Assembly (NCBI GenBank): GCA_964492025.1
Contig: CAZBHR010000002.1
Location: forward strand, 106,568-170,567
Reading direction: 5' to 3'
DNA length: 64,000 nucleotides
Source of the DNA: an uncultured Spirochaetia bacterium
GTDB taxonomy: Bacteria > Spirochaetota > Spirochaetia > CAZBHR01
Position 1 is the stretch's first letter. Every line of letters starts with the position of its first letter. Below are positions 27,685 through 44,664 of the stretch, in pieces. The notes under the pieces were generated by a model that saw only the letters and a program-made list of their open reading frames with translations, was not told where the DNA came from and did no database searches. A program made the position numbers and the translations under genes.

Positions 27685-28776
27685 CTAGGATTTTTTAAGG
27701 TATTTCTTTGTATCTAGGGATACGGCAGTTACAATAATTACACCCTTAATAATGTACTGAAAGTTCTGGTCTAAACCAATAAAGGTCATTCCATAACTAA
27801 TAATAGTAAACATTAAAACTCCCACAATAGCTCCTGATATTTTCCCAATCCCTCCACTAAAGGATATTCCTCCTACAACACATGCTGCAATAGCATCAAG
27901 TTCATACCCAAAACCGGTTCCATTGTTGGCACTTCCAATTCTGGCGGCTTCAAGAAATCCACCAAGTCCATAAAGAACTCCTGCAAGAATATATACTAGC
28001 ACGGTAACAGTCATAATGTTAATTCCAGAAACCTTTGCTGCCTCTGGGTTGCCTCCTACGGCGTACATATTTTTTCCAAAAACTGTTTTATTCCAAAGTA
28101 CCCACATTACCATGCTGGTTACTGCTGCAATAATAACGAGGTTTGGTATTCCTAGGGTGTTTCCAATTACAAAGTTTGTATAGTTTTCCGCATGTCCCCC
28201 TATTGGTTGTGGTCCTGGAGCTCCAGATGCAAAATAGATAGAGAGAATACCATACAGAGTAATCATCATTCCCATAGTTGCGAGGAATGGGTGAATCTTA
28301 AACTTTGCTACCACAAATCCGTTTATCGCACTAAAGAGTGCACACACCGCCATAGCAATAAGCATGGGAACAATAAGGGGTAGGGCAACAAGGTCTGGGT
28401 AAAACCGTGCTGCGTAGTCTGGTCTCTGTAAAAGGGAGGCCGAAATCACTGCAGCAAACCCAACAGACCGTCCTAGTGAAAGATCTGTTCCTTGCAAAAT
28501 AATAATTCCCGCAACTCCAAGGGCCAAAATAAGACGCACCGAAGATTGGGTTAATATGTTGGTAAATACGGCCCAGTTAAACCCTACCGTAGGCCTTTGT
28601 CGAATAATAAAGGAGGGGTCTTTAATAATAATAGCTAAGATAATAACTGCTAAAACAATATAAATGGCATTTCTGATACCAAATTCCTGCCACTCCACCT
28701 TAGTTTTTGGAGGTTTCCATGTTGGTTTCACTCTCCTCCAGCCTTTCTGTATTATGTTTGAAAAATGTATACTCAT
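27685..28776 (-). CDS. mglC: Galactose/glucose ABC transporter permease
   Basis: 363 aa polytopic membrane protein, 4-nt overlap with the ATPase gene, last gene of a binding-protein/ATPase/permease operon. Confidence 0.7.
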
Positions 28777-30293
28777 GCTTCCGCCTCTTTTGTATTATTA
28801 AGATATTTTGCAGAGAGGTGAAAAATCTCCTCCTGGGTGGTTGAATCGGTATCTACAATACCCGCAATTCTTCCGTTACTCATAGCTATTATTCGGTTGG
28901 TAATTCCTAGAAGTTCTACCATTTCCGAAGATACCACAATAACCGATTTACCACGTTTTGCGAGGTCTATAATCAGTTGATATATTTCGTATTTTGCTCC
29001 CACATCAATTCCTCTCGTAGGTTCGTCAAGAAGAAGAATGTCGGGATCTGTAAGAAGCCAGCGTCCAATAATAACTTTCTGCTGGTTACCTCCACTTAAG
29101 TTTCGAATCTGCTCTTTCTTATGGGGGGTCTTAATTCTCATGTTTTTAATCTGTGTATCGGTATCCCTCTTCATCTTTCTATTCTGAAGGAGCCGTGTGG
29201 GGCCTCTATACGCCTCAATATTGGCTATACATGAGTTAAAGGTAATATCTGCTACGGGATAAATCCCTGTCTCTCTACGCTCCTCAGTTAGTAGGGCAAA
29301 GTGGTTACGAATAGCTTTGTGGGGTTCACTATTATTGATTTTTTTACCGTCAATAAAGATCTCCCCAGAAAGCAAAGTTCTTGCTCCAAAGAGAGCCTCT
29401 ACCATCTCAGTTCGTCCGGCCCCCACTAGCCCTGCAACCCCAAGAATCTCTCCCTTACGGAGATCAAAGGACACATCCTTTACCTGAGGCTCATATTTGG
29501 TAGTAAGGTTTTTTACACGCATGTGAACCTCTCCTGGGGTGTTATCCTTTGGGGGAAACCAGTGACTGAGATCTCTTCCTACCATCATTTGAACAATCTT
29601 TTCCATGGTAAGATTTTCTACGGTATCCGTTCCTATGTACTCTCCATCTCGTAGTACGGTTACCTCATCGGATATGGCAAAAATTTCATCCATTTTGTGG
29701 GATATATACACAATTCCCACACCTTGTCCTTTCAGGACTTCAATAATTTGAAAAAGCTTGGCTACCTCATTTTCTGTTAATGAGGAGGTAGGTTCATCTA
29801 GGACAATAATTTTTGCATCATAAGAGACTGCTCTTGCAATCTCTACCATCTGTCTTTGAGATACCGACAGGTGGTGTAGGGGAGTTTTTGGATCAACCTG
29901 AATATCAAGCTTATCAAAGAGCTCCTGAGTATTTTTGTGCATCTCTGATTCGTTTACAAAGAATCCCTTTTTGGGGTACCGCCCCAGCCAAATGTTATCA
30001 CTAATAGTTCTCTGTACCACCTGATTGAGTTCTTGATGAACCATAGAAACACCCTGCTCAAGGGCGTGCTTTGGATCGGAAAAATTAAACTGTTTTCCAT
30101 TCAGAAAGAATGTTCCCTGATCCTGCTTGTACATTCCAAATAAGCATTTCATAAGAGTGGATTTTCCCGCTCCATTTTCACCCATAAGGGAGTGTACTGT
30201 CCCTGGGCGTACATTTAGTGAGACGTGTTTTAATACCTTTACTCCCGAAAAGGCTTTACAAACATCTTTAATTTCTAAGGCGTATTCTGCCAC
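28773..30293 (-). CDS. mglA: Galactose/glucose ABC transporter ATP-binding protein (tandem nucleotide-binding domains)
   Basis: 506 aa, two Walker A motifs and signature motifs ([17 protein letters not shown]); N-terminus [15 protein letters not shown]. Confidence 0.8.
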
Positions 30294-30381: not shown

Positions 30382-31428
30382 TTAGAAATCTTGATAGTTT
30401 TCAGGAGTTACCGCAACGTAGGGTACTCGAACAGCCTTTGTTTCTGGGCTGTCAATAGTCCATTTGGTTCCAGCGATAGCGTCTTTACCCATAGCTGCAT
30501 TGAGGGCAAGGTCAAGAGTAGCTCGTGCTTGGTTTACTCCATCGTTAAGAACGGTTCCATCTAACTCTCCATCTGCAATATGAGTAAGAGCTTGGGTGAG
30601 TGCATCAACACCATAAATAGGGATTCTTACATTAGCTGCTTTCATAGAAGTGATAGCACCAAATGCCATACCGTCGTTGTTACAGATAACAAGCTCAATA
30701 TCACTTCCAAAGCTAGAGGTTAACCATGCGGCCATTTTATCTGCACCATGGGTTGTTGACCAGTTTGGGTCAGCTTCAATTGCAAGTTGTTGAACACCAA
30801 TACCTGCATCGGTAAAAGCTTTTACCGACTCCGTAGTTCTCGCCTCTGCATCTGGATGTCCAGGCTCTCCTTTGAGCATTACGTATTGAACAGTTCCGTC
30901 TCCATTTTTGTCCCATTCTGGATTTGCTTTCCAGTCTGCAACCATCATTTGACCTTGGATAATTCCAGACTCTGCTGAGTTAGTTCCTACATACCAAACC
31001 TTATCGTAGGTTTTCATAATTCCCTCTTCTGTAGCCTCTTTGTTAAAGAAAATTAAAGGGATCCCAGCTTTTTTTGCTTTTTCAATAATAGAACCAGCAG
31101 ATGCAGGATCTACAAGATTAATAGCCAAAACATCAACACCCTTGGTAATAAATATATCTACCTGATCGTTAAGTTTTGCCTGCTGACCTTCTGAATCTAC
31201 AATAGTAATTTTCATACCTTTTTCCGTTGCGTATCGCTGTAGTTCTGGTTTGATAACTCCATTCATAAAGTTATCTGCAAAACTGTAGATATTTGAACCT
31301 ACAACAATTTCCTGAACCTTAGGGGTGGTAGTTCCTCCTGTGGTTGAGGTTTGCTCATCCTTAGAACATCCTACGATAAAAATCGCAACCATAAGAATTA
31401 AACCTGCTAAAAGTAATGGTTTTTTCAT
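30382..31428 (-). CDS. mglB: Galactose/glucose-binding periplasmic lipoprotein
   Basis: 348 aa with signal peptide and lipobox IVGCS; periplasmic-binding-protein fold; first gene of the mgl operon. Confidence 0.75.
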   Translation of the reverse strand: MKKPLLLAGLILMVAIFIVGCSKDEQTSTTGGTTTPKVQEIVVGSNIYSFADNFMNGVIKPELQRYATEKGMKITIVDSEGQQAKLNDQVDIFITKGVDVLAINLVDPASAGSIIEKAKKAGIPLIFFNKEATEEGIMKTYDKVWYVGTNSAESGIIQGQMMVADWKANPEWDKNGDGTVQYVMLKGEPGHPDAEARTTESVKAFTDAGIGVQQLAIEADPNWSTTHGADKMAAWLTSSFGSDIELVICNNDGMAFGAITSMKAANVRIPIYGVDALTQALTHIADGELDGTVLNDGVNQARATLDLALNAAMGKDAIAGTKWTIDSPETKAVRVPYVAVTPENYQDF

Positions 31429-31652
31429 AATTCTTTCTCCTTAATATGTGTGTAAATATATAAACAGTCTAGCACCGATATGGGGTAAAACAATGTGTTT
31501 TTCTCTTATGAATTTGTAAGGTTTTATAGAATTCTCCATTTTTTATGATGTTTTTATGGATATTCCCCCCATAAAAATTTATACCTATTGCCTCTTGTGT
31601 TTCTCTCAATTCGTGGTATACTCGTCGAAAGAATAGGAAAGAAGGAGCTCAT

Positions 31653-33860
31653 ATGGAGGCTAAGTTTCGATCGGCTTATATTGGAGGGGGTGGATATATC
31701 CCTGGTATTATTCAAAATCAAGAGGACCCAAACATCCTGTACGCCCGATCCGACGTGGGCGGGGTATTTAAGTCAGAAAATGGGGGAAAAAGCTGGAGCC
31801 TCTGTAATAGGGGTTTTACAAAAGCCTTAGATCATTACTCTCAGGATCTTATCCTTGATCCAAAAAATCCACAGGTTCTTTTTCATGCGGCAGGGGAGTT
31901 ACGGGCTCATAAAAAACTTGGACGTATTCACCGATCCCTTGATGGAGGGAGCTCTTGGCAGTTGATGACCGAAGAGGTTGATTTTTTTGGTAATGGACCT
32001 ACAAGAATGAGTGGGCATGTTATGGCTATTCATCCAGAGGATTCCAATATTGTTATAGCCGGAGGATACTCAAAGGGTCTTTGGGTTAGTAGAGATGGAG
32101 GAGAGAGCTGGAAATACCAAGGGTTGGCGGGGAAAAGGATTACCTTTGTACTGTTTGACCCAGACAACTCAAATCACCTTTATATTGGATCAATTGAAGA
32201 TAAGGAGTTACTTATTGTAAAAGGACTCTCCGGAGATGAGAGAACACAGGCCCTTCTTGACTATCAGGATGAGCCACGAGCAGAGCAGAGTGAGCTTTTT
32301 CTGACAACCAATCTTGGTGAAACCTTTGATCAGGTGTATCAATGTGAACACGCAGGTTTTCTTGAGGCAGTTTTTGTACCTCATAGCAATGTTATTCTTA
32401 TAGCAACCTCTACGGGAGTACTTAGAAGTGAGAATAAAGGAAAGTCCTTTCAGATGGTTCCTCATGAGATTCTTCCTCAAGGAGGTTTTTACCAAGCCAT
32501 TGCAATCTCCCCTGTAGATGGAACACTGTATGTAGCTCAAAAGTACTCTGACATAGACTGCCCCATATACACATCACAGGATTTAGGAGTTACCTGGAAT
32601 CTGTTTGCTCCAGAGGTGCAACCATCTCACATGCATGAGTTTCCAGAACACCTCTCTGAACCGAGACATCTGGGTGGAATAGGATCCATTGCATCTCTTA
32701 TGCCAGACTGCAAGGATCCAAATAAGCTGTACTTCTCTAACTTCTGGGGGGTTACAGTTACCTATGATAGGGGTGTAAATTTTTATGGGCATTACTTTAC
32801 AGGGTTAGAAATGACCTGTATTGAGCATGTGATAAAACATCCTACTCAACAGGGGAGGGTGGTTCTCTCCATTGTTGATCACGCCCCTATGGTGAGTGAT
32901 GATTCCGGAGAGAGTTATCACGCCATAACCTTGCCCTTTGATGTGAATAATCAACCATCTCGGTCGGTTGCAGTTTCTCGGCATGATTCGGACTTTCTTA
33001 TCTGGTCTATGGGAAGGGTACATCGAAACCGAGGGCTTGAAGTGTACCGCTCTTTCAAAAGAGGGAAAGATGCGGAGCTGGTGTTTCACAAAGGGGGGCA
33101 ATCCTTTATCTCCTGTTTGTATGAGGATCTTCACAGAAAAGGACGGTTTTGGATGATTAATGAGGGAAGTTTACAAGATCCATCGGAGGATGCCGGGGTG
33201 TTTTGTTCTGATGACTTTGGAGCTTCTTGGCAAAAAGTAACCTCTCCCTATCCTAATTATATGGAGAGAATTCCCCATAAGAAAGAGTTTATAGATAGGG
33301 ATTTCATTACGGTAGTTCCTTATCAATTTCGGAACGGAAGTGGCGCAAATAAGCATCTATGTGGGGATTATAAAAAGCAAGATGTTATCTATGTAGGAGA
33401 GTATAGCGAAGGGCTGTACCGCTCCGATAACGGGGGAGTATCTTGGGTAGACATATCGCAGGGGCTTCCATTTCATGATGACCCTGTTCATCTTCTTTCT
33501 CATGTTGTGGCAGATCCCGATGCCGAGGGAACCGTGTATGCTGGGTTCTGGAAAGCAGGATTATGGCGTTCCCAAGATTTTGGATCCTCTTGGAGTAAGG
33601 TGTTTCCAAAGGGCAATCAGGACTTTAATGCTGTTACGTTATCTATTGATAAGGGAGTAATTGCTGTTGCCTGTGCGGAAAACACCCATAGCCCTGTTCC
33701 CGCAGATCTACATATATCCTATGATAAAGGAGTAAGTTGGCAGACCCTCTATGATGACTCCCTAGGATCATTATCTTTTAACTCCATATCCCTAGATTCT
33801 GATAAACGTAGAATTTATGCGGGTACTTGTGGGAATGGTATTTTTACTATCGACTATTAG
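31653..33860 (+). CDS. BNR/Asp-box repeat protein, GH74-like (putative xyloglucan-active glycoside hydrolase)
   Basis: 735 aa. N-terminal GGGGYIPGI motif and at least eight S-x-D-x-G-x-(S/T)-W Asp-box repeats (e.g. SENGGKSW, SLDGGSSW, SRDGGESW). No signal peptide. Confidence 0.55.
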   Translation: MEAKFRSAYIGGGGYIPGIIQNQEDPNILYARSDVGGVFKSENGGKSWSLCNRGFTKALDHYSQDLILDPKNPQVLFHAAGELRAHKKLGRIHRSLDGGSSWQLMTEEVDFFGNGPTRMSGHVMAIHPEDSNIVIAGGYSKGLWVSRDGGESWKYQGLAGKRITFVLFDPDNSNHLYIGSIEDKELLIVKGLSGDERTQALLDYQDEPRAEQSELFLTTNLGETFDQVYQCEHAGFLEAVFVPHSNVILIATSTGVLRSENKGKSFQMVPHEILPQGGFYQAIAISPVDGTLYVAQKYSDIDCPIYTSQDLGVTWNLFAPEVQPSHMHEFPEHLSEPRHLGGIGSIASLMPDCKDPNKLYFSNFWGVTVTYDRGVNFYGHYFTGLEMTCIEHVIKHPTQQGRVVLSIVDHAPMVSDDSGESYHAITLPFDVNNQPSRSVAVSRHDSDFLIWSMGRVHRNRGLEVYRSFKRGKDAELVFHKGGQSFISCLYEDLHRKGRFWMINEGSLQDPSEDAGVFCSDDFGASWQKVTSPYPNYMERIPHKKEFIDRDFITVVPYQFRNGSGANKHLCGDYKKQDVIYVGEYSEGLYRSDNGGVSWVDISQGLPFHDDPVHLLSHVVADPDAEGTVYAGFWKAGLWRSQDFGSSWSKVFPKGNQDFNAVTLSIDKGVIAVACAENTHSPVPADLHISYDKGVSWQTLYDDSLGSLSFNSISLDSDKRRIYAGTCGNGIFTIDY

Positions 33861-33914
33861 TGGTTACTTAGATATGGGGCTCCTCTTCTGAGGAGCCCCA
33901 GTTATTTTACAGAA

Positions 33915-35090
33915 CTATTTGAGTTTTGCCCAATCACCTCGTAAGAAGTGATCCTGCTTTATATTTCCATGGGTCCATCCTGCAAGGCCCGTCCACTCTT
34001 TGTATGGGGCTTTCCAAAAACGGTGCTTAGGGGGGAGACCAAGTGGCAGAAATGCCATACAGCAGAAGTACTGGCTTCCTATAGAAAGGTAGTACTCTCC
34101 TAGTTTATCTTGCTCACCATATACTCCCATGGTGAGCCATCCATTTGCATCGAAGATATTTGGATTTTCCATGGTCTTTTCTATAACGGCGGTCATTGCC
34201 GAGCGTATTTGATTTGGTGCAAGATTTTTTGGGAGTAATCCATGGAGAGCAAGGTGTCCTAAGTGCTGAAAAGCACCAAACCGATAGGTGAGTGAACGAC
34301 CAATAAGTGGGTAGGTCCCATCGGGACCAATCATTCTTTCAAGTACCTGTGCGTATCGGGAACCTCGTTTGAGCTGTTCTTTATACAGTTTAGTAAAGTA
34401 GGGAAGTTCCTTTTTTACCTGAAACAGAACATCCATCATCATAGGCTGAATTACAAAGCTATTGTAGTAATCCCATGCAAACTCAGGACCATCACCATAA
34501 GCACCATCACCTACATACCAGTCATCGTGGGACCTAAGGGCGTACTCAATTCGTGTAATATCGTAGGCCTCTCCTATGCTACATAAAAAGGTCTCAATGA
34601 TAGCAGAAAAGAGTAACCAGTTACTGTAGTCTGGTCTATGTTTTCTACTCTCTTGAAAAGCAGCTAAAAGTTGCTGTTTTGTTTCCGATGGAAGAGGTTC
34701 CCAAAGCTGCTTTGGAGCTCGATAAAAGGCATTTGCCAAGTATGCAGCATGTACAAGTTGGGTCTTATTACGAAGGAAATCTGCATAATCCTTTGCCTGT
34801 GGGTTTACAAGGTTTATAACTCCCTCTCGAGCCATAACTCTAAATTTTTGCTGAAGATCTTTCTCCTCACCTTGGGGTAACTGAACCTCAAGCCAGGGAG
34901 CAATTCCTGCTAAAACACGACTACACCCCTCTAGATTACTAAAGAAATAGGCTCCCGCTTTTCTTTTTGGGAACACCTCCAAAAGTCTATCCTCTGCTAA
35001 GGCAGATAGAAGTGGCTCCGTGATTTTTACCATGGTGTCAATCCAAAATTGTCGGACTGGTTTTCCTCGTTCCATTGAATACTGCATCAA
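33915..35090 (-). CDS. Conserved hypothetical protein, possibly carbohydrate-active (DUF2264-like)
   Basis: 391-aa soluble ORF with no signal peptide and good coding character; family assignment is from memory only. Confidence 0.4.
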   Translation of the reverse strand: MMQYSMERGKPVRQFWIDTMVKITEPLLSALAEDRLLEVFPKRKAGAYFFSNLEGCSRVLAGIAPWLEVQLPQGEEKDLQQKFRVMAREGVINLVNPQAKDYADFLRNKTQLVHAAYLANAFYRAPKQLWEPLPSETKQQLLAAFQESRKHRPDYSNWLLFSAIIETFLCSIGEAYDITRIEYALRSHDDWYVGDGAYGDGPEFAWDYYNSFVIQPMMMDVLFQVKKELPYFTKLYKEQLKRGSRYAQVLERMIGPDGTYPLIGRSLTYRFGAFQHLGHLALHGLLPKNLAPNQIRSAMTAVIEKTMENPNIFDANGWLTMGVYGEQDKLGEYYLSIGSQYFCCMAFLPLGLPPKHRFWKAPYKEWTGLAGWTHGNIKQDHFLRGDWAKLK

Positions 35091-35186
35091 TTTGTCTCCT
35101 TCCCCCTAGGTTATATCATAACTCTAGAATTATTTAAAGATACTCTTTTATATGAGAAAGGGGTAGAGGATATAGAGTGTAAGTGG

Positions 35187-36245
35187 TTATTCGCCAATCC
35201 TAAACATCTTATAATCCACCAGAGTATGCTGAGCTCTCTTTGGTAACTCCTTCCCCTCAGGACTTTCTGTAAGAAGGTATTGTGCTAACTTGTATATTTC
35301 TTCCGTTTGCTGCACTGAATCATTAATAACCGTTCCATAGAGGTGTCCACTCTTTATATATTCCACCGCTTCTGGAATTCCATCAATCCCAATAACGGGA
35401 ATCCATGTGTCATCATCCTTGTCCAACCGCCCATTGTTATTGGAATCCCTAAAATAGCCCCGTTGCTTAAGTTGGTCAATTGCTCCCAGTGCCATGGCAT
35501 CATTATTTGATATAATGAGTTCTACCTCTTTCATATTGTTATCAAGGAGGGTTCCCATTAACTCGTAAGCCGTTGAGTAACTCCAATTTCCTGATTCCGT
35601 GGCAAGAATGTCTAAGGTGTATCCCATACCCTTTAAGGTTTGGATCACAGTACTTGTTCGAATTTCCGCATCCTGATGTCCCTGTTCCCCTTTAAAAATA
35701 ATAAGTTGTATCTTATTATCTCCATTCTTATCGTAGACTCCAAGTTTATCTTCTTTTAGGAGGAAAAGCTCTGCCACCATCTCTGCTTGAATTCTTCCTG
35801 ATTGATCTGCGAGAGCCCCTACATAGTACGCATGTTCCCATAGATCCATATCTTGAGAGAGTGGTTCTCTATTATAGAAAATAACCGGAATGTTTTCTTC
35901 TTTGAGCCTTTTAATAATTGGATATACCCCCAATCGGTCAACAGGGTTAATAATAAGTAGATTCGCCTTATTATGGATCGCTTCCTCAATAAATTCATTT
36001 TGGATAACCTGAGAGTTCATGGAATCCTCTATGGTAAGTTGATAATTTCCTTCCAGTTTTAGTTCTAGCCGGTCAGTTAGTGTTTGTATAAAAGGATCAT
36101 CTTTGTACAAATATGGGAGAATTACTACCGATGGTTGGTCCTCCTTGCAGCCATATACTAGGGGGAGTATGAGAAATAGTACCAAGAGGAAGAAAAGGGG
36201 TGTATGGGTTTTTATCGGTATTTTGAGTTGGATTATCTGCTTCAT
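35187..36245 (-). CDS. Periplasmic sugar-binding lipoprotein, MglB paralog, sensor-associated
   Basis: 352 aa, lipobox LVYGC. Shares blocks with the MglB at 30382-31428 (KGEQGHQDAEIRT vs KGEPGHPDAEART; NNDAMALGAI vs NNDGMAFGAI). Its start overlaps the histidine kinase gene by 4 nt. Confidence 0.6.
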   Translation of the reverse strand: MKQIIQLKIPIKTHTPLFFLLVLFLILPLVYGCKEDQPSVVILPYLYKDDPFIQTLTDRLELKLEGNYQLTIEDSMNSQVIQNEFIEEAIHNKANLLIINPVDRLGVYPIIKRLKEENIPVIFYNREPLSQDMDLWEHAYYVGALADQSGRIQAEMVAELFLLKEDKLGVYDKNGDNKIQLIIFKGEQGHQDAEIRTSTVIQTLKGMGYTLDILATESGNWSYSTAYELMGTLLDNNMKEVELIISNNDAMALGAIDQLKQRGYFRDSNNNGRLDKDDDTWIPVIGIDGIPEAVEYIKSGHLYGTVINDSVQQTEEIYKLAQYLLTESPEGKELPKRAQHTLVDYKMFRIGE

Positions 36246-38023
36246 AGGGTGCTCTCTTTTGTACTTTCAAATGGAGTATCTATTGATTTCTCTAGGGTAA
36301 ATGGGATTGCTGGAATAATAAGGCTCACCGTAGTGTGGGAGTCTGGCTCACTCATTATGTGTACATCCGCCCCCTCTCCATAGTACAGTTTAATCCGCTT
36401 ATACACATTTTTCATGCCTACACCCTCAAGATTTTCGGAGTCTCTCATATTTTTGTCTATCCTTTGAATCTGTTCATCTGTGAGTCCGTATCCCGTATTG
36501 GTCACTTCAAATATCAGGTTCTCCTCATTACGGTAACCTTTGACGGTAATATGTTCTGTCTCACCGTGAACGCCATGCTCTATCGCATTTTCTACTAATG
36601 GTTGTAAAAGTAGCTTCATAGTAGAGTAGGGGTATATTTCTGGTGATATATCAATAGTATAGTTAAACCGTTGGTCGTATCGGATCTTTTGAATTACCAA
36701 ATAGCTTGTAATATGGGCTACCTCATGTTCCACTGATATAATGCTTTTTCCTCGAGATATACTAATTCTAAAAAATCGAGCCAGTGCGGTAACCATAGTA
36801 ATAACATCTTCCGTTCTACTGTGTTCTGCTAACCACACAATGGAGTCTAGTGTGTTATAAAGAAAGTGTGGATTTATCTGATTTTGAAGAATTCGCAGTT
36901 CTGTTTTTCGCTTTTCTCTCTGTTCCTCTACAACCCGAGACATGAGGAGTTGGATCTCCTCTGCCATGGTGTTAAATGCGTGTGCCACCACCATAAGCTC
37001 TTTTTGTCCTGAGATATGAAGTTTTGTTTTAAAGTGACCCTGCTCAATCTTTGCCATACTTTTTCGGAGTTCTTTGAGAGGACGGGTGATACGAGAGGAT
37101 ACCCCAACGCTTATGCCTACTGTTGCAACCAAGCTTATCAACCCAATAATAAGGATAAGTCTCCAGATAGTGGCAATCGCTATAGGTATAGAGTTTACAT
37201 TATTGACGGTAACAATTCTCCATCGAGTATTATCAAGGGTGTTTATATTTACCATCATAGCAACTCCCTCTACTGAAATAGGGTGGGACCCAAAAAATTT
37301 TGAGACAGCAAATGGGTAAACAACCTCTTGAGAGATTGGTAATTCTGGTGCCGAGTTGTAGATGAGTGCATCCTCCTCATTGATAATGAGAAGGTGTCCA
37401 TTAAGACCTAGATTGGTGAGCTCTGCGAGCCTTGTTAATACTTCAAAATTTAACTCAATAAGAAGAACTCCTTGACGGGTAAATCCACGTTTTTTATATG
37501 AAATAACCTTTGAGACTGAAATAACCTCCTCAGTATGTGTCTGATACATACTCTGGGCATGGGGTGCTGAAAAGTAAAAAATGTTCTCTCTGTATATACT
37601 CTGGTAAAACCACTCTTGTTGCTGAATAGCTTCAGAGTAAGATGTTCCTAGTTCTCTTCCTACTACTCTGTTTCCAGAAAGATCAAAGAGGGTTATCCCA
37701 ACTACATCTTCTTTCATGTCTGAGTTGAGAGAGTAGGCTTGAGAAATAATAGAGTAGTCCGTTTCTGTATCATAAGAACTTGATACTTGTTGCAGGTAGT
37801 TTGATGTTTCTATTACATCGTTTATGTACCGCTGATAATTAAAAATTATCTGCTTATTAATCTCTTTTGATTGACTTTTAATAAGAGTATTTGCCTCTTT
37901 TGAGAATATAGTAGGGTAGATAAGCATGTTTAATCCCAGAACAACAAGGACAATCCCAACAATAGTTATGGTAATAATTGCAGCAATAGAAAGTCTATCT
38001 CTAAGAGTTCTGAATCTGTTCAC
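36242..38023 (-). CDS. Sensor histidine kinase (YesM/LytS-type)
   Basis: N-terminal TM helix, extracytoplasmic region, second TM helix, HAMP, then His-kinase and ATPase domains (QINPHFLYNTLDSI, ENAIEHG). The ORF track extends to 38137, but the GTG at 38023 with AAAGAGG upstream is the more likely start. Confidence 0.75.
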   Translation of the reverse strand: MNRFRTLRDRLSIAAIITITIVGIVLVVLGLNMLIYPTIFSKEANTLIKSQSKEINKQIIFNYQRYINDVIETSNYLQQVSSSYDTETDYSIISQAYSLNSDMKEDVVGITLFDLSGNRVVGRELGTSYSEAIQQQEWFYQSIYRENIFYFSAPHAQSMYQTHTEEVISVSKVISYKKRGFTRQGVLLIELNFEVLTRLAELTNLGLNGHLLIINEEDALIYNSAPELPISQEVVYPFAVSKFFGSHPISVEGVAMMVNINTLDNTRWRIVTVNNVNSIPIAIATIWRLILIIGLISLVATVGISVGVSSRITRPLKELRKSMAKIEQGHFKTKLHISGQKELMVVAHAFNTMAEEIQLLMSRVVEEQREKRKTELRILQNQINPHFLYNTLDSIVWLAEHSRTEDVITMVTALARFFRISISRGKSIISVEHEVAHITSYLVIQKIRYDQRFNYTIDISPEIYPYSTMKLLLQPLVENAIEHGVHGETEHITVKGYRNEENLIFEVTNTGYGLTDEQIQRIDKNMRDSENLEGVGMKNVYKRIKLYYGEGADVHIMSEPDSHTTVSLIIPAIPFTLEKSIDTPFESTKESTL

Positions 38024-39593
38024 GGTACCTCTTTGGGGAAACTCCCTCGTATTTTTTAAAACTGTGGCTAAAGTAATATACGTCACTATATCCACACTTT
38101 TCTGCAATCTCAATAATTCGTTGTGGTGTCCGTGCAAGGAGCTCTTTTGCCTTTTCTATTCTAATTTGCGTAAGGTGTTTTACAAAGGTCATATTCTGCT
38201 GCTTAAAGAGTAGGCTCAGGTATGATTGACTAATCTCTAGGGTATCAGAAATATTAACCATAGCAAGTTTTGGGTTTGCATACTCCATTGTCATAAGGTT
38301 AAGGGCTTTTTTGAAAAGTGCTTCTGCTCTAGAGACGTTGTTTTCTAGGTTCGCCTCACGTATCTGAATAATTCTTTTAAGTCCCCAGTTGAGAGCCTCT
38401 TCTACTCCTTGAAACTGATTAAGCATCTGTAGTGGAGATATTTCCTGCCCGCCCAGAGAGCTTATCCCTAAAGACTCTTCTACAGAAGTTACAATATGAG
38501 CAAGATGAATAAGAAAGTTTTGAAAAGAGAGTTTCGTCATTTTTTTTGTGACTAAGAGATCATTGAGGCCCTTGAATGCTACTGATACCTCTTCTAAGGT
38601 TCCCATTTTGGAGAGGTACTCAAGATTTTGTAGATCCCCTGAAGGAATAACAAAGGTATCTTGTGATGGTTTTTGAAGCTGATGTATGTATACAATATCA
38701 CTGGGACCCAAGTACGATGCATGGTGGAGAGCTCGGTTTGTCTCCTCGTATGGGGTGCTAATATCTAAAATTGAGTGGTACGGGTTACTTACTCCCAGAT
38801 GAATATTTGTAGATAAAACCTTTTCTGATACCTTAATCATTTCAAAAAATATGGTATCCATTCTTTTTGAAAACGTTTCATCATCAATCTGTATTATACA
38901 AAGAATGGACCCCGCAAATTGCAAACTGTGAAATGTTACATTGTGTCGCTCCAGTGTTTTCTCAATAAGTGATCGAAGAGAAATTTTCTGTTTTTCATGC
39001 TCAAGAATGGAAGACTTTCCCTTAGGTATATCAGTTTTCACTTGAACCAGAATATAATCACCATGAACGGTTATACCTATGGGCTCTGGTTGTTGTGACT
39101 TTTTCTCTGAAAAGGGGTTCATAAGAAGTGATATTAAGTAGTTCTCTGTGAGAAGAGGAATAGTTGCCTGATACTGGTCCTGTAACTGCTGTATGTTCTT
39201 CTGTTCCTCAGCCTCTTTGTCAAGCTCCTCTTTTATACGTTTAAGGAATTGAGATATGTCATCCGATGTTACGGGTTTGGTAAGGTAACTTATTACATTT
39301 AGGTTGATCGCTCTCTGGGCATAGTCAAATTCATCGTACCCAGAGAGAAAGGCAACACGAATAGTGGGATAGTCATGCTGAATAATAGATGCAAGTTCTA
39401 ATCCATCAATGTAGGGCATTTTGATATCTGTAAGTACCACATGGGGAGAGAGTTTTTCTATGAGATCTATAGCGTCGTAGCCATTACTGGCAGTTCCAAC
39501 CACCTCAAAACCCTGCTGTGCAGAGATCTTCTCCGTAACTCTTCCCCGAACCTCATTTTCATCGTCTACAATGATTAGCTTGTATCGTTCCAT
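38001..39593 (-). CDS. Response regulator with receiver and AraC-type HTH domains (YesN-like)
   Basis: Receiver domain begins MERYKLIIVDDENEV; C-terminal AraC helix-turn-helix. Start set to ATG 39593; the 39-aa upstream ORF extension has no receiver-like sequence. Confidence 0.75.
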   Translation of the reverse strand: MERYKLIIVDDENEVRGRVTEKISAQQGFEVVGTASNGYDAIDLIEKLSPHVVLTDIKMPYIDGLELASIIQHDYPTIRVAFLSGYDEFDYAQRAINLNVISYLTKPVTSDDISQFLKRIKEELDKEAEEQKNIQQLQDQYQATIPLLTENYLISLLMNPFSEKKSQQPEPIGITVHGDYILVQVKTDIPKGKSSILEHEKQKISLRSLIEKTLERHNVTFHSLQFAGSILCIIQIDDETFSKRMDTIFFEMIKVSEKVLSTNIHLGVSNPYHSILDISTPYEETNRALHHASYLGPSDIVYIHQLQKPSQDTFVIPSGDLQNLEYLSKMGTLEEVSVAFKGLNDLLVTKKMTKLSFQNFLIHLAHIVTSVEESLGISSLGGQEISPLQMLNQFQGVEEALNWGLKRIIQIREANLENNVSRAEALFKKALNLMTMEYANPKLAMVNISDTLEISQSYLSLLFKQQNMTFVKHLTQIRIEKAKELLARTPQRIIEIAEKCGYSDVYYFSHSFKKYEGVSPKRYREQIQNS

Positions 39594-39602
39594 ATAAAAG
39601 AT

Positions 39603-39611
39603 ATTATACCA
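39603..39611 (-). promoter_or_regulatory. Extended -10 promoter element (TGgTATAAT) just upstream of the regulator ATG
   Basis: On the minus strand, TGGTATAAT is followed by 9 nt and then ATG, with no Shine-Dalgarno sequence in between. This predicts a leaderless or near-leaderless transcript. Confidence 0.3.
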
Positions 39612-39741
39612 CAGCTTCAGAAGTGAAACAATTATATTGTTGAAACTATTTTTTCGTCTGGAGAATGGTGCGTATCTGTCGTTAAATGGACAAAAAAAGG
39701 AGCTACCCAAAGGCAGCTCCTACAATATTACAATGCACCAT

Positions 39742-40347
39742 TTATGGGGTGGTACCATCCTCTGGTGGAGTAGGGATATGGGTAATAATAATTTTAGCTA
39801 CCCAAGATTGGTCTGGGTCTCTTTCAATGTAGAAAGGCCTTGTTTCTGAGGGAACAAAAAGGCTATCTGAGGCACTCTCCCAGGTTGTTCCATAGAGGAA
39901 TTTTGAATCCTCAATATAAGGGTTAAAAAAGGTCTCTAAGTCTGCTGAGTAGCTTTTTCTCCTCCCTTCAATAGTTGCACTGAGGTATGTGTAGTCTCCA
40001 ATAAGGTTATACTCTCTTTCATATTCATTTCCCGATGTATATGCTTCATAATCAAAAAATTGTATTGACGAAATTGATCGGACCATCAGGCTTTCTTCCC
40101 CTTCAAAAAGCTCATTGCTGGAGTATGCAGTAGATGACTGGTGGTACCCGTAGGGGATAATATCTGTAAAAGAAAAATCCACTGACCCCAACTGGTAGTT
40201 TGAATCTACCGAAATAACAATGTTTTCTGCTGTTCTATTTTCGATGATAATTGTTGATACGTTTTGGTATCCCCCAACGTAACAGGGTCCACAGCTTATG
40301 ATAAGTGCGAGAATAGGTATGGTAAATAGTAGTAGTTTTTTCATCAT
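39742..40347 (-). CDS. Lipoprotein of unknown function (paralog A)
   Basis: 201 aa, signal peptide with lipobox LIISC. C-terminal block TRPFYIERDPDQSW...IIITHIPTPPEDG is shared with the upstream ORF. Confidence 0.5.
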   Translation of the reverse strand: MMKKLLLFTIPILALIISCGPCYVGGYQNVSTIIIENRTAENIVISVDSNYQLGSVDFSFTDIIPYGYHQSSTAYSSNELFEGEESLMVRSISSIQFFDYEAYTSGNEYEREYNLIGDYTYLSATIEGRRKSYSADLETFFNPYIEDSKFLYGTTWESASDSLFVPSETRPFYIERDPDQSWVAKIIITHIPTPPEDGTTP

Positions 40348-40354
40348 TTTCTCC

Positions 40355-41014
40355 TTAATTGAGTACCGGTATGGTTGGAACTTTAGTAATAATAACTCTC
40401 CCTAAACTGTCATCTTCTGTATCTCGTTGTAGGTAAAAAGGTCTTGAGTCATCGTCAGCTGGAGCAACAAAAAGCCTCTCCGAAAAATTAGGGTCATTTG
40501 TCGCTTCCCAGCTAAGGCCGTAATAAAATATATCATCGGGGTACGCATCCTCATATATCGGGTTTGGAGGACCTATGGAGAGTCTCGCTTGATCATTGAT
40601 TTGACTCGCTCTATTCTGTATAAACTCCCTATCTACCTGAGAGTAGGGGTACATATAATCTGCGATAAACTCCTGTGTTATAGGGTTATATATTTTCAAA
40701 CCACTAAATGCTCTTAGCATGATATTTGGTCTTTCAAAGTCGTTGGAGTGAGCTGAGCTATAGTAGTATGTGAGGTCAATCTTGGTGGACTCTCCCGCAG
40801 GAACAGTCATCTTGGGAGTAGCTTCAACAGGCATGTCATAATAGTAATTTCCAGAGTGGTTCATAAATAGGGTTATTGAAAGATCTTCTGTGGTTGTATT
40901 GTCTATAGATACGGTGTATTCAACGGTTGTCTTTGTTATGGGTACTTTCCCCCAAGGATAGCATCCCACAATAAGCAACAGAGGAACTATGAGCATTAAG
41001 CCATGTTTTTTCAT
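40355..41014 (-). CDS. Lipoprotein of unknown function (paralog B)
   Basis: 219 aa, lipobox LIVGC. C-terminal block SRPFYLQRDTEDDS...VIITKVPTIPVLN. AAAAGGAG ribosome-binding site. Confidence 0.5.
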   Translation of the reverse strand: MKKHGLMLIVPLLLIVGCYPWGKVPITKTTVEYTVSIDNTTTEDLSITLFMNHSGNYYYDMPVEATPKMTVPAGESTKIDLTYYYSSAHSNDFERPNIMLRAFSGLKIYNPITQEFIADYMYPYSQVDREFIQNRASQINDQARLSIGPPNPIYEDAYPDDIFYYGLSWEATNDPNFSERLFVAPADDDSRPFYLQRDTEDDSLGRVIITKVPTIPVLN

Positions 41015-41038: not shown

Positions 41039-41066
41039 ATTCTATCACGTATTGCTAAGAAGTCAA
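41039..41066 (-). promoter_or_regulatory. Sigma-70-type promoter candidate for the lipoprotein pair
   Basis: On the minus strand: TTGACT (41066-41061), 16-nt spacer, TAGAAT (41044-41039), about 25 nt upstream of the ATG at 41014. Confidence 0.35.
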
Positions 41067-41130
41067 GGTGAAATTTTTCTCAAAAGTAGATAATTCTAGT
41101 AATGTGTCTGTATGGGGTAGGGGTGTTCCT

Positions 41131-44068: not shown

Positions 44069-44341
44069 ATGAGTATTACAAACCATATAAAACCTATCTC
44101 ATATATTAAATCGCACGCAGCAGAGGTTCTTCAAGATGTTCACGAGACTAAGGTTCCTTATGTTATCACACAACATGGAGAAGCTAAGGCTGTCCTTATG
44201 GATACCTCTTCGTATGACTCTTTAATGGAGTCAATAAAAGTGCTTAAGCTCCTCCAGCAAGGAGAGAAGGATGTGGTTGAGGAGTGTGTTGTTGCTCAAG
44301 ATACTGTTTTTTCTCAGGTAGAGAAGATTTTTGACATATGA
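44069..44341 (+). CDS. Type II antitoxin, Phd/YefM family
   Basis: 90 aa (MSITNHIKPISYIKSHAAEVLQDVHETKVPYVITQHGEAKAVLMDTSSYDSL...). 4-nt overlap with the downstream toxin gene. GGAGG ribosome-binding site. Confidence 0.6.
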   Translation: MSITNHIKPISYIKSHAAEVLQDVHETKVPYVITQHGEAKAVLMDTSSYDSLMESIKVLKLLQQGEKDVVEECVVAQDTVFSQVEKIFDI

Positions 44342-44664
44342 GTAATGGGTTTTCAGTTCTGTGGACAGGTACAGCTGTAGAGGATTTGAAGTCTCTGTGT
44401 GAGTATCTTGCACAAGACTCAATGAATGTTGCTAGAAAGCAGTATAAAAAAATACGAGATAGAGCTAAAACACTTGAAACATTCCCTTTTGAAGGTCGTG
44501 TTATTCCTGAGTTACAGGTTCACAATATTTATACTTACAGAGAGCTTGTAATTTCTCCATGGAGATTGTTCTATCGTATAAGTAAGCAAGAGGTGTATGT
44601 ACTTGCAATAATAGATAGTAGGCGAGATATCCAAGATCTCCTTTTGGATCGTATTTTACGGTAA
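44338..44664 (+). CDS. Type II toxin, ParE/RelE family
   Basis: 108 aa, C-terminal ...YRELVISPWRLFYRISKQEVYVLAIIDSRRD typical of ParE/RelE. ATGA overlap with the antitoxin gene. Confidence 0.6.
   Translation: MSNGFSVLWTGTAVEDLKSLCEYLAQDSMNVARKQYKKIRDRAKTLETFPFEGRVIPELQVHNIYTYRELVISPWRLFYRISKQEVYVLAIIDSRRDIQDLLLDRILR

Follow-up and report, generated by a model that had tools for sequence, protein, structure and literature searches.

An MglB paralog encoded with a YesM-type kinase and a YesN-type regulator as a candidate three-component sugar sensor for mglBAC in an uncultured Spirochaetia bacterium

Why should a bacterium whose Mgl-type glucose/galactose ATP-binding cassette (ABC) transporter already has its own solute-binding protein (SBP), MglB, encode a second, distant MglB-like lipoprotein alongside a sensor kinase and a transcriptional regulator? 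The question is raised by a 64,000-nucleotide stretch of DNA (the window; all positions are numbered within it unless a relative's locus is named) from an uncultured Spirochaetia bacterium (assembly GCA_964492025.1, contig CAZBHR010000002.1, positions 106,568 to 170,567 of the forward strand). We consider it likely that the three adjacent genes concerned (the triad) form a three-component sugar sensor that controls the transporter. In the proposed mechanism, a membrane-anchored lipoprotein paralogous to MglB, the glucose/galactose-binding protein (GGBP), and distinct from the transporter's own SBP would bind periplasmic glucose or galactose, and the sugar-loaded sensor would signal its occupied state to a YesM-type histidine kinase (HK) through the periplasmic dCache domain of the latter. 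The kinase would autophosphorylate and pass the phosphate to D56 of a YesN-type response regulator (RR) that joins a receiver (REC) to an AraC domain; the AraC domain would then bind direct repeats spaced by 21 nt over the weak −35 element of mglB, activating mglBAC and so producing more MglBAC. Contact between the SBP and the kinase, and activation by sugar as the direction of regulation, are the steps that we infer. The triad and its immediate upstream signals are as follows.

39593..38001, minus strand: response regulator of the YesN type, 530 aa, start MERYKL (open reading frame [ORF] translation, Pfam, NCBIfam)
38023..36242, minus strand: sensor histidine kinase of the YesM type, 593 aa, GTG start (Pfam, length in relatives)
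36245..35187, minus strand: sensor solute-binding lipoprotein, Peripla_BP_4, 352 aa, ancient MglB/GGBP paralog (Pfam, NCBIfam, alignments)
39603..39611, minus strand: extended −10-like element TGGTATAAT, 9 nt 5′ of the RR ATG, putative triad promoter (sequence, inference only)
39698..39721, minus strand: terminator-like hairpin with T-run, 3′ of the preceding lipoprotein genes (sequence, terminator scan)

A sequence-only reading of this DNA had described a minus-strand order of AraC-type regulator, YesM-type kinase, and binding lipoprotein, with the lipoprotein start overlapping the kinase stop by 4 nt. The order was confirmed by the ORFs and Pfam, and the overlap can be read directly in the sequence, where the sensor ATG and the HK TGA share ATGA. 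The RR and HK genes likewise overlap, by 23 nt, with the HK beginning at a GTG, a start consistent with the 593-aa length at which the kinase is annotated in relatives too, and the three genes are predicted to be translationally coupled. Pfam assigns to the RR a Response_reg domain, a GGDEF_2-like linker, and an HTH_18/HTH_AraC domain, and its translation contains the acidic pair D10/D11, the phospho-acceptor D56, and K108. The HK consists of a first transmembrane helix (TM1), a ~245-aa periplasmic dCache domain spanning residues ~41–285, TM2, HAMP, the His_kinase domain PF06580 with the H-box QINPHFLYNTL, and HATPase_c. Since the H-box and D10/D11/D56/K108 are intact, HK and RR both look catalytically competent. 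Sequence matches to the RR in the PDB were 6swb/6swf/6swi and 3lsg (YesN); the 6sw* entries, which are labelled only generically, match the cytoplasmic domains of both RR and HK. The upstream hairpin terminator, together with the −10-like element before the RR, makes the triad look like a separate transcription unit. The sole plausible RR start has no Shine-Dalgarno sequence (39593..39611, minus strand) and lies 9 nt past that −10-like element, which suggests that the RR-HK-sensor mRNA may be leaderless or nearly so. A generic sigma-70 promoter scan gave no more matches than shuffled sequence (38 vs. 34.7 ± 5.3), and from this promoter and terminator scan only two clear hairpin terminators were used. 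Rfam and tRNA scans of the 64-kb window were empty.

That the lipoprotein resembles the transport MglB encoded about 4 kb away, as had been proposed, held up on alignment: the two proteins are 31% identical over ~326 residues (BLASTP E 7e-43), and 3.76 kb separates the sensor gene from mglB. Judged from the sequences, the similarity to MglB and the arrangement of the genes are far beyond chance. The top NCBIfam match of the sensor is MglB (NF011924 equivalog) at 189.8 bits, under the curated cutoff of 420; the transport MglB, at 371.8 bits, also falls slightly under it. The sensor has a lipoprotein-type N terminus (…LVYGC33), and Cys33 is invariant among 33 aligned relatives. Although its identity to characterized GGBPs is only ~31–34%, mapping of its residues onto Salmonella GGBP through a phmmer alignment showed that the ten first-shell residues D14, F16, N91, H152, D154, R158, W183, N211, D236, and N256 are all identical in the sensor, with the neighboring K92 being Arg, and that the Ca2+ ligands D134, N136, D138, Q142, and E205 are identical as well; we take these to be the sugar-contact and Ca2+ residues of the classical GGBP structures (2GBP). 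Inspection of the ligand contacts, which the sequence-only reading had proposed as a check, thus found the GGBP pocket conserved in the sensor, and the alignment gives the transport MglB the same pocket. Throughout the sensor clade the pocket positions are invariant or nearly so. An AlphaFold2 (AF2) model of the sensor has a mean predicted local distance difference test (pLDDT) score of 88.8, and all of its top Foldseek matches are GGBPs, the best being glucose-bound forms (8fxu, E 1.8e-30, template-modeling score TMt 0.89; then 3gbp, 2hph, and 2gbp). Because the ten GGBP contact residues and the fold are kept, glucose or galactose is the likeliest signal and probably the ligand of the sensor, in parallel with the xylose pair XylFII/XylF; the earlier statement that ligand and regulon were unknown can be refined for the ligand, which is narrowed to these two sugars as probable candidates.

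The transporter operon lies on the same strand as the triad, on the far side of an insert of two genes.

31428..30382, minus strand: mglB, transport glucose/galactose-binding lipoprotein, predicted first gene of the regulated operon (NCBIfam, 372 bits)
30293..28773, minus strand: mglA, ABC ATPase (NCBIfam MglA, 795.5 bits, narrowly under the cutoff of 828)
28776..27685, minus strand: mglC, permease (NCBIfam MglC, 428.7 bits, above the cutoff of 386)
31653..35090, no strand assigned: lineage-specific insert between triad and mglBAC (Pfam; absent in the 80 canonical loci, present in L085–L090)

To place this arrangement, one genome per GTDB species was scanned and the window proteins were mapped by tblastn, which yielded 80 loci from other species of the Spirochaetota, Izemoplasmatales, and Erysipelotrichaceae. 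Homologs of the sensor number in the hundreds at 44–53% identity, mostly from Spirochaetia metagenome-assembled genomes (MAGs) together with Izemoplasmatales and Acholeplasmataceae, and are usually annotated as "galactose ABC transporter substrate-binding protein". The HK gene is directly upstream of the sensor gene in every locus with enough flank (67/67), and the RR gene is upstream in all 55 loci where the flank suffices. An MglB of >55% identity starts <800 nt 3′ of the sensor gene in 56 of 72 loci and is followed by MglA and MglC; these downstream MglBs are 63–83% identical to the window transport MglB. In six further loci mglBAC lies 1.1–4.2 kb downstream of the sensor gene. The canonical unit, as read from these sequences, is RR-HK-sensor-mglB-mglA-mglC on one strand, and because canonical loci hold the six genes contiguously, the window represents a derived, split form of the widespread six-gene cassette. 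With the insert between the sensor gene and the operator described below, regulation would therefore act over ~3.7 kb in trans. The gene context argues against the sensor copy serving MglAC as a receptor, since the first gene of the transporter operon encodes an MglB of its own, both in the window and in those 56 of 72 loci. A close strain (L086) retains the window layout. None of the GTDB species representatives encodes a sensor protein nearer than ~50% identity, and near-identical contigs were found solely in GCA_019826085.1, GCA_019826185.1, and GCA_019825885.1 and in runs SRR15291758-67.

A pointer to the target of the regulator is a conserved site in front of mglB. Spacers between the sensor gene and mglB, typically 110–150 nt long, were right-aligned and anchored on a common ACATTG. 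They share the block tttTG.aaAAT.TtAcAAA.t.Tg.g.AGaATATTACATTGT, followed ~17 nt on by TGnTAnnnT. The block is self-similar: its proximal and upstream 13-mers match at 7.87/13 positions when shifted by 21 nt, compared with 2.4–5.1 at other shifts from 10 to 26. A pair of half-sites two helical turns apart, the proximal one over a poor −35 element, is the classic layout of an AraC/XylS-type activator site, and the predicted operator, with its direct repeats and its proximal half-site at −35, has this layout, CATTGT standing 16–17 nt upstream of TGnTAnnnT. A 44-nt position weight matrix (PWM) built from 54 loci of other species, with the window excluded, picks out one place in the window, with 28.6 bits against 10.0 for the next-best match and at most 14.3 in any of 30 shuffles. 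The mglB promoter region of the window reads as follows.

31532..31489, minus strand: predicted binding site of the RR in the mglB promoter, 60 nt before the ATG (PWM, 28.6 bits)
31527..31515, minus strand: distal 13-nt half-site of the operator, ATAAAACCTTACA (21-nt repeat)
31506..31494, minus strand: proximal 13-nt half-site of the operator, AGAGAAAAACACA, running into the weak −35 element CATTGT (21-nt repeat)
31466..31474, minus strand: extended −10-like element TGCTAGACT of the mglB promoter, 16 nt past TTGTTT (sequence; TGnTAnnnT register in relatives)
31442..31437, minus strand: Shine-Dalgarno sequence AAGGAG of mglB (sequence)

The direct repeats that the sequence-only reading had suggested looking for upstream of mglB are therefore present, with a spacing of 21 nt, at 31532..31489. 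Loci on which the matrix had not been trained place the site in front of mglB even where the operon has been disturbed. In four loci with an insert, the site lies ~150 nt upstream of mglB, past the insert, and is the only strong site of its locus (L048, 31.4 bits; L049, 29.9; L071, 40.8; L078, 33.1). In a fifth, where the transporter operon is inverted (L056), a site of 40.4 bits is found on the opposite strand, again before mglB. In these five untrained loci the operator travels with mglB, and natural inserted, inverted, or lost transporter operons assign the operator to mglB. A scan of 1.17 Mb of loci gave one site of ≥18 bits in 66 of the 80, none in 13, and an overlapping pair in one. There is strong comparative support for the mglB promoter as the predicted target of the RR, in the window as elsewhere, and we infer that the protein binding the predicted operator would be the RR. 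The overall reading of SBP to kinase to AraC regulator to cognate transporter thus gains support from synteny and from the predicted operator. It had named mglBAC and/or the GH74-like gene of the insert as the target: mglBAC stands, with a single operator that moves with mglB, whereas the GH74-like gene is without support as a direct target, there being no second operator. The triad gave no indication of autoregulation, a second site of ≥18 bits being absent in 79 of the 80 loci.

A conserved ORF of ~199 aa (…NIQESFVSVWTLMSDTTIFLSNHTKIF…) lies directly upstream of the operator in the four spirochaete loci with an insert between sensor gene and mglB (L048, 14353-14946; L049, 12544-13143; L071, 12662-13261; L078, 12902-13495), where it is adjoined by genes for a DeoD-like phosphorylase and a metallophosphoesterase.

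The sensor clade carries a surface feature of its own.

35412..35447, minus strand: EF-hand-like loop DxNxNGxLDxxD (DSNNNGRLDKDD), sensor residues 267–278 (alignments, AF2 model)

The loop is part of an insertion of ~16 residues (window residues 265–281; clade consensus F.D.N.NG.ID..D..W) that matches the canonical EF-hand loop at positions 1, 3, 5, 6, 8, 9, and 12. Residues F265, D267, N269, N271, D275, D278, and W281 are conserved in ≥90% of the sensor clade, and alignments show the insertion to be missing from transport MglBs and from E. coli/Salmonella GGBP. It exists alongside the normal GGBP Ca site and is modeled as a confident surface feature (pLDDT 90–93). The loop is dispensable, because one clade member (P0094) is without it. 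A recent local duplication of mglB as the origin of the sensor gene was ruled out by the 31% identity and by the separate two-phylum clade with its own insertion. A role for the loop as a kinase-docking element or as a second Ca site is a guess, although this clade-specific, Ca-loop-like insertion could be the determinant of kinase docking. We think it unlikely that the full extension of this idea is correct, namely, that the sensor clade comprises a distinct, widespread set of GGBP-derived signaling receptors in which the loop docks or gates the dCache kinase in a Ca2+-dependent manner and whose cassette has moved as a whole. If it were, the coupling between SBP and dCache would be of a structurally new mode, sugar signaling would depend on periplasmic Ca2+ and integrate two inputs, and the six-gene cassette would have passed in one piece from one group to the other among Spirochaetota and wall-less Firmicutes relatives.

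Several points weigh against a sensor-dependent circuit acting on mglBAC. All of the evidence for it is computational. The window operator ranks near the 10th percentile of the PWM training set, and its proximal half-site is degenerate, with three conserved T's replaced. In about 10 of the 72 loci, the transporter that accompanies the sensor clade is a more divergent one of the CUT2 type, and a strong site is lacking. In a 75%-identical relative (L004), where the triad is followed by two DUF2264 genes, neither mglBAC nor the operator was found within 10 kb of the triad; linkage of sensor and transporter is therefore dispensable. Furthermore, small ligands are often bound by dCache domains directly; given this, and given that the Ruminiclostridium cellulolyticum kinase-regulator pair CuaSR still signals to some degree without its SBP, CuaD, the sensor SBP may be an enhancer rather than an obligate sensor. 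Without CuaD, CuaSR keeps some signaling, with less efficient perception of cellobiose (PMC10384115).

These last points feed the alternative that survives best, although we regard it as unlikely: that the HK senses directly through its dCache pocket and the MglB paralog is an accessory, either an affinity enhancer or a second receptor for MglAC. The identity of the kinase domain bears on it. The Pfam score of the HK for dCache_1 (PF02743) is 26.4 bits, under the gathering score of 45, and a precomputed PF02743 match is present in all 120 HK homologs among the matches listed, which include proteins of Thiospirochaeta perfilievii, Oceanispirochaeta crateris, and Spirochaeta isovalerica. An AF2 model of HK residues 36–292 (pLDDT 87) begins with a long helix and continues in two PAS-like modules, and its Foldseek matches are the dCache domains of Mlp24, PscC, Tlp3, and KinD (E ~1e-10, template-modeling scores 0.6–0.7). 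As modeled, the HK sensor domain has a dCache fold, and it would thus appear to be a bona fide dCache domain like those of ligand-binding chemoreceptors and kinases. That the sensor retains the whole GGBP fold and pocket also leaves docking to MglC possible. Against direct sensing, the sensor clade is adjacent to the HK in all 67 loci, with genes that often overlap or nearly abut, the transporter has its own MglB, and the surface insertion sets the sensors, in ≥90% of the clade, apart from transport MglBs. In the Cua system, the purified extracellular domain of CuaS bound no sugar (PMC10384115).

It is distinctly unlikely, in our estimate, that the sensor instead recognizes a related oligosaccharide or glycoside, such as one produced by the GH74-like or DUF2264 protein, or that the signal also needs Ca2+. 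This would fit the sensor's identity of merely ~32–34% to characterized GGBPs, a score, 190 bits, that lies far under the 420 required of an MglB equivalog, and the extra Ca-loop-like insertion, and in the Cua system the specificities of the sensor and transport SBPs do differ (PMC10384115). The sensor, however, has all ten first-shell GGBP residues unchanged, with Arg at the neighboring K92 as the one substitution noted, and the pocket is invariant over a two-phylum clade in which most members have no GH74 or DUF2264 neighbors.

The genes of the insert underlie the remaining alternative.

35090..33915, minus strand: DUF2264/PF10022 gene, 96 nt 3′ of the sensor gene (Pfam; precomputed label BcGHD)
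31653..33860, plus strand: GH74-like Sortilin/BNR gene, 735 aa, convergent to the DUF2264 gene (Pfam)
33875..33900, no strand assigned: strong bidirectional hairpin terminator between the DUF2264 and GH74-like genes (terminator scan)

Both proteins are without a signal peptide, and the pair looks like cytoplasmic glycoside-hydrolase-like enzymes encoded between a sugar sensor and a transporter; a literature search on DUF2264 found nothing, although the family may correspond to a CAZy GH family. Either gene was rejected as a direct RR target, because the window contains no further operator-like site. The 96 nt that separate DUF2264 from the sensor gene hold no predicted terminator, which makes cotranscription of the two possible, and the GH74-like gene shares with mglB a 224-nt divergent intergenic region in which the operator sits ~120 nt from the GH74-like ATG. 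In two related loci (L085/L001), an extra insert of 8.8 kb follows the sensor gene and encodes TctCBA, three oxidoreductases, and LacI. It is very improbable that the triad has been rewired to DUF2264 by read-through or to the GH74-like gene through the divergent promoter, with mglBAC not its target or not its sole one: each of the three close lineages does have DUF2264 3′ of the triad, even the one lacking a nearby mglBAC (L004), but no operator-like site exists upstream of DUF2264 or elsewhere in the window, the one site present faces the mglB promoter in just the orientation and at just the distance seen in 60+ other species, and read-through to DUF2264 is ruled out in L085 because 8.8 kb of unrelated genes, with a divergent LacI gene, part it from the sensor gene. 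None of these alternatives and the sensor-controlled activation of mglBAC that we favor are mutually exclusive.

The junction 3′ of the sensor stop codon (35168..35195) is variable between strains (cf. L001 11052..19821 and L085 1168..9920). DNA identity to a sister strain that carries the 8.8-kb insert here is 90.5% over the triad and upstream and rises to ~97% from DUF2264 on, with the DUF2264 protein 100% identical; this step in identity suggests recombination at the sensor-gene junction.

Six Izemoplasmatales/Erysipelotrichaceae MAG loci (L035, L067, L075, L076, L079, and L080) encode the triad followed by a different CUT2 transporter, with a ChvE-like SBP and an ATPase only 36–41% identical to MglA. 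In these loci the operator matrix reaches no more than 7–14 bits, and this branch has possibly been retargeted or has diverged.

Upstream of the triad, two tandem paralogous genes encode small lipoproteins (39742..40347 and 40355..41014, both minus strand) that are 27% identical to each other (E 9e-13), belong to no Pfam family, and have in common the C-terminal motif RPFY[IL][EQ]RD…IIT[HK][IV]PT. They are kept upstream of the triad in the closest relatives only (L001 and L004). The second-best match to the operator matrix in the window, which is nonsignificant (10 bits), lies upstream of these genes at 41105..41062. Farther along, at 44069..44664 on the plus strand, overlapping genes of 90 and 108 aa correspond to those called in L001 as PhdYeFM antitoxin and ParE toxin. 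Because L004, otherwise collinear, lacks both, they form a variable insertion of a toxin-antitoxin pair, flanked by birA and bioY.

To our knowledge, SBP-assisted three-component sugar sensors have been characterized in few Firmicutes only. Systems that combine a dedicated sensor SBP, a kinase, and a YesN/AraC regulator are established for xylose in Clostridium beijerinckii, arabinose in Geobacillus stearothermophilus, and cellobiose in R. cellulolyticum (PMC8050422, PMC10384115). The window shares the architectural features of this class: an SBP gene colocated and apparently cotranscribed with HK and RR genes, a separate paralogous transport SBP served by an ABC permease and ATPase of its own (mglBAC), a YesN-type RR (REC and AraC helix-turn-helix), and a two-TM kinase with an extracytoplasmic domain and a PF06580 core. 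The other traits of the class, control of the cognate transporter operon by the regulator and ligand-modulated contact between SBP and kinase, are predicted here. Going by gene names, the SBP gene comes first in the characterized systems, whereas the order here is RR-HK-SBP.

XylFII–LytS–YesN of C. beijerinckii, which controls xylFGH, is alike in having a Peripla_BP_4 sensor paralogous to the transport SBP, a REC–AraC regulator, and a CUT2 output (PMC8050422, PMC10384115). It differs in its sugar, xylose there and predicted glucose/galactose here, and in its host, Firmicutes versus Spirochaetota; XylFII is absent from the top 50 structural matches of our sensor. The ligand-binding domain of LytS is listed as a four-helix-bundle, TarH-like domain (PMC8050422), in contrast to the ~245-aa dCache domain of the window HK. 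No XylFII–LytS-type four-helix bundle (TarH-like) is seen in the HK sensor-domain model, and the LytS sensor domain was not among the PDB matches of the HK sequence. LytS is, as far as we know, the sole kinase of the class with a solved SBP complex (5XSJ), and because its sensor domain is a four-helix bundle and that of the HK a dCache domain, the coupling geometry of 5XSJ is not simply transferable.

The CuaD–CuaS–CuaR system of R. cellulolyticum, controlling cuaABC-cbpA, likewise has a lipoprotein sensor SBP distinct from the transport SBP; CuaD binds the extracellular domain of CuaS, the adjacent ABC transporter is induced, and CuaR, like the window RR, is a YesN/AraC protein of ~530 aa whose middle region is long and whose acceptor is of the D55 type (PMC10384115). 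CuaD, unlike the sensor described here, belongs to another SBP family and recognizes a disaccharide, whereas both SBPs of the window are GGBP-like and the transporter is of the CUT2 type (MglAC). The arabinose system of G. stearothermophilus, presumably AraP–AraS–AraT with araEGH, is similar in that an SBP, a kinase, and an AraC-type regulator govern a monosaccharide ABC transporter; the sugar and phylum differ. It is cited as one of the two carbohydrate systems in which sensing and transport are left to different SBPs (PMC10384115).

Compared with plain transport receptors, the sensor shares with MglB (GGBP) of E. coli/Salmonella and with the glucose-binding protein of T. thermosaccharolyticum (8fxu) the fold (TMt 0.87–0.89), the ten contact residues, and the Ca site, but it is a lipoprotein with an EF-hand-like loop encoded in a two-component operon, at 31–34% identity. 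In LuxP–LuxQ and ChvE–VirA, too, a Peripla_BP_4 protein has as its partner a kinase whose periplasmic domain is dCache-like (PMC8050422), although their kinases and regulators are of other classes and their outputs are quorum sensing and virulence; ChvE doubles as a transport SBP, whereas in the window system sensing and transport are split between paralogs. In its pairing of Peripla_BP_4 with dCache, the window system is closer to LuxP–LuxQ or ChvE–VirA than to XylFII–LytS. A literature search, with most subscription journals outside its coverage, found no published three-component system of the GGBP type. The window system belongs to the known SBP–kinase–AraC three-component class and introduces no new principle; what is new is the same logic on a GGBP paralog and a dCache kinase, with a predicted operator and a clade definition that are testable. 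By the same comparison, hundreds of proteins that now carry the label "galactose ABC transporter substrate-binding protein" probably act in sensing rather than as transport receptors.

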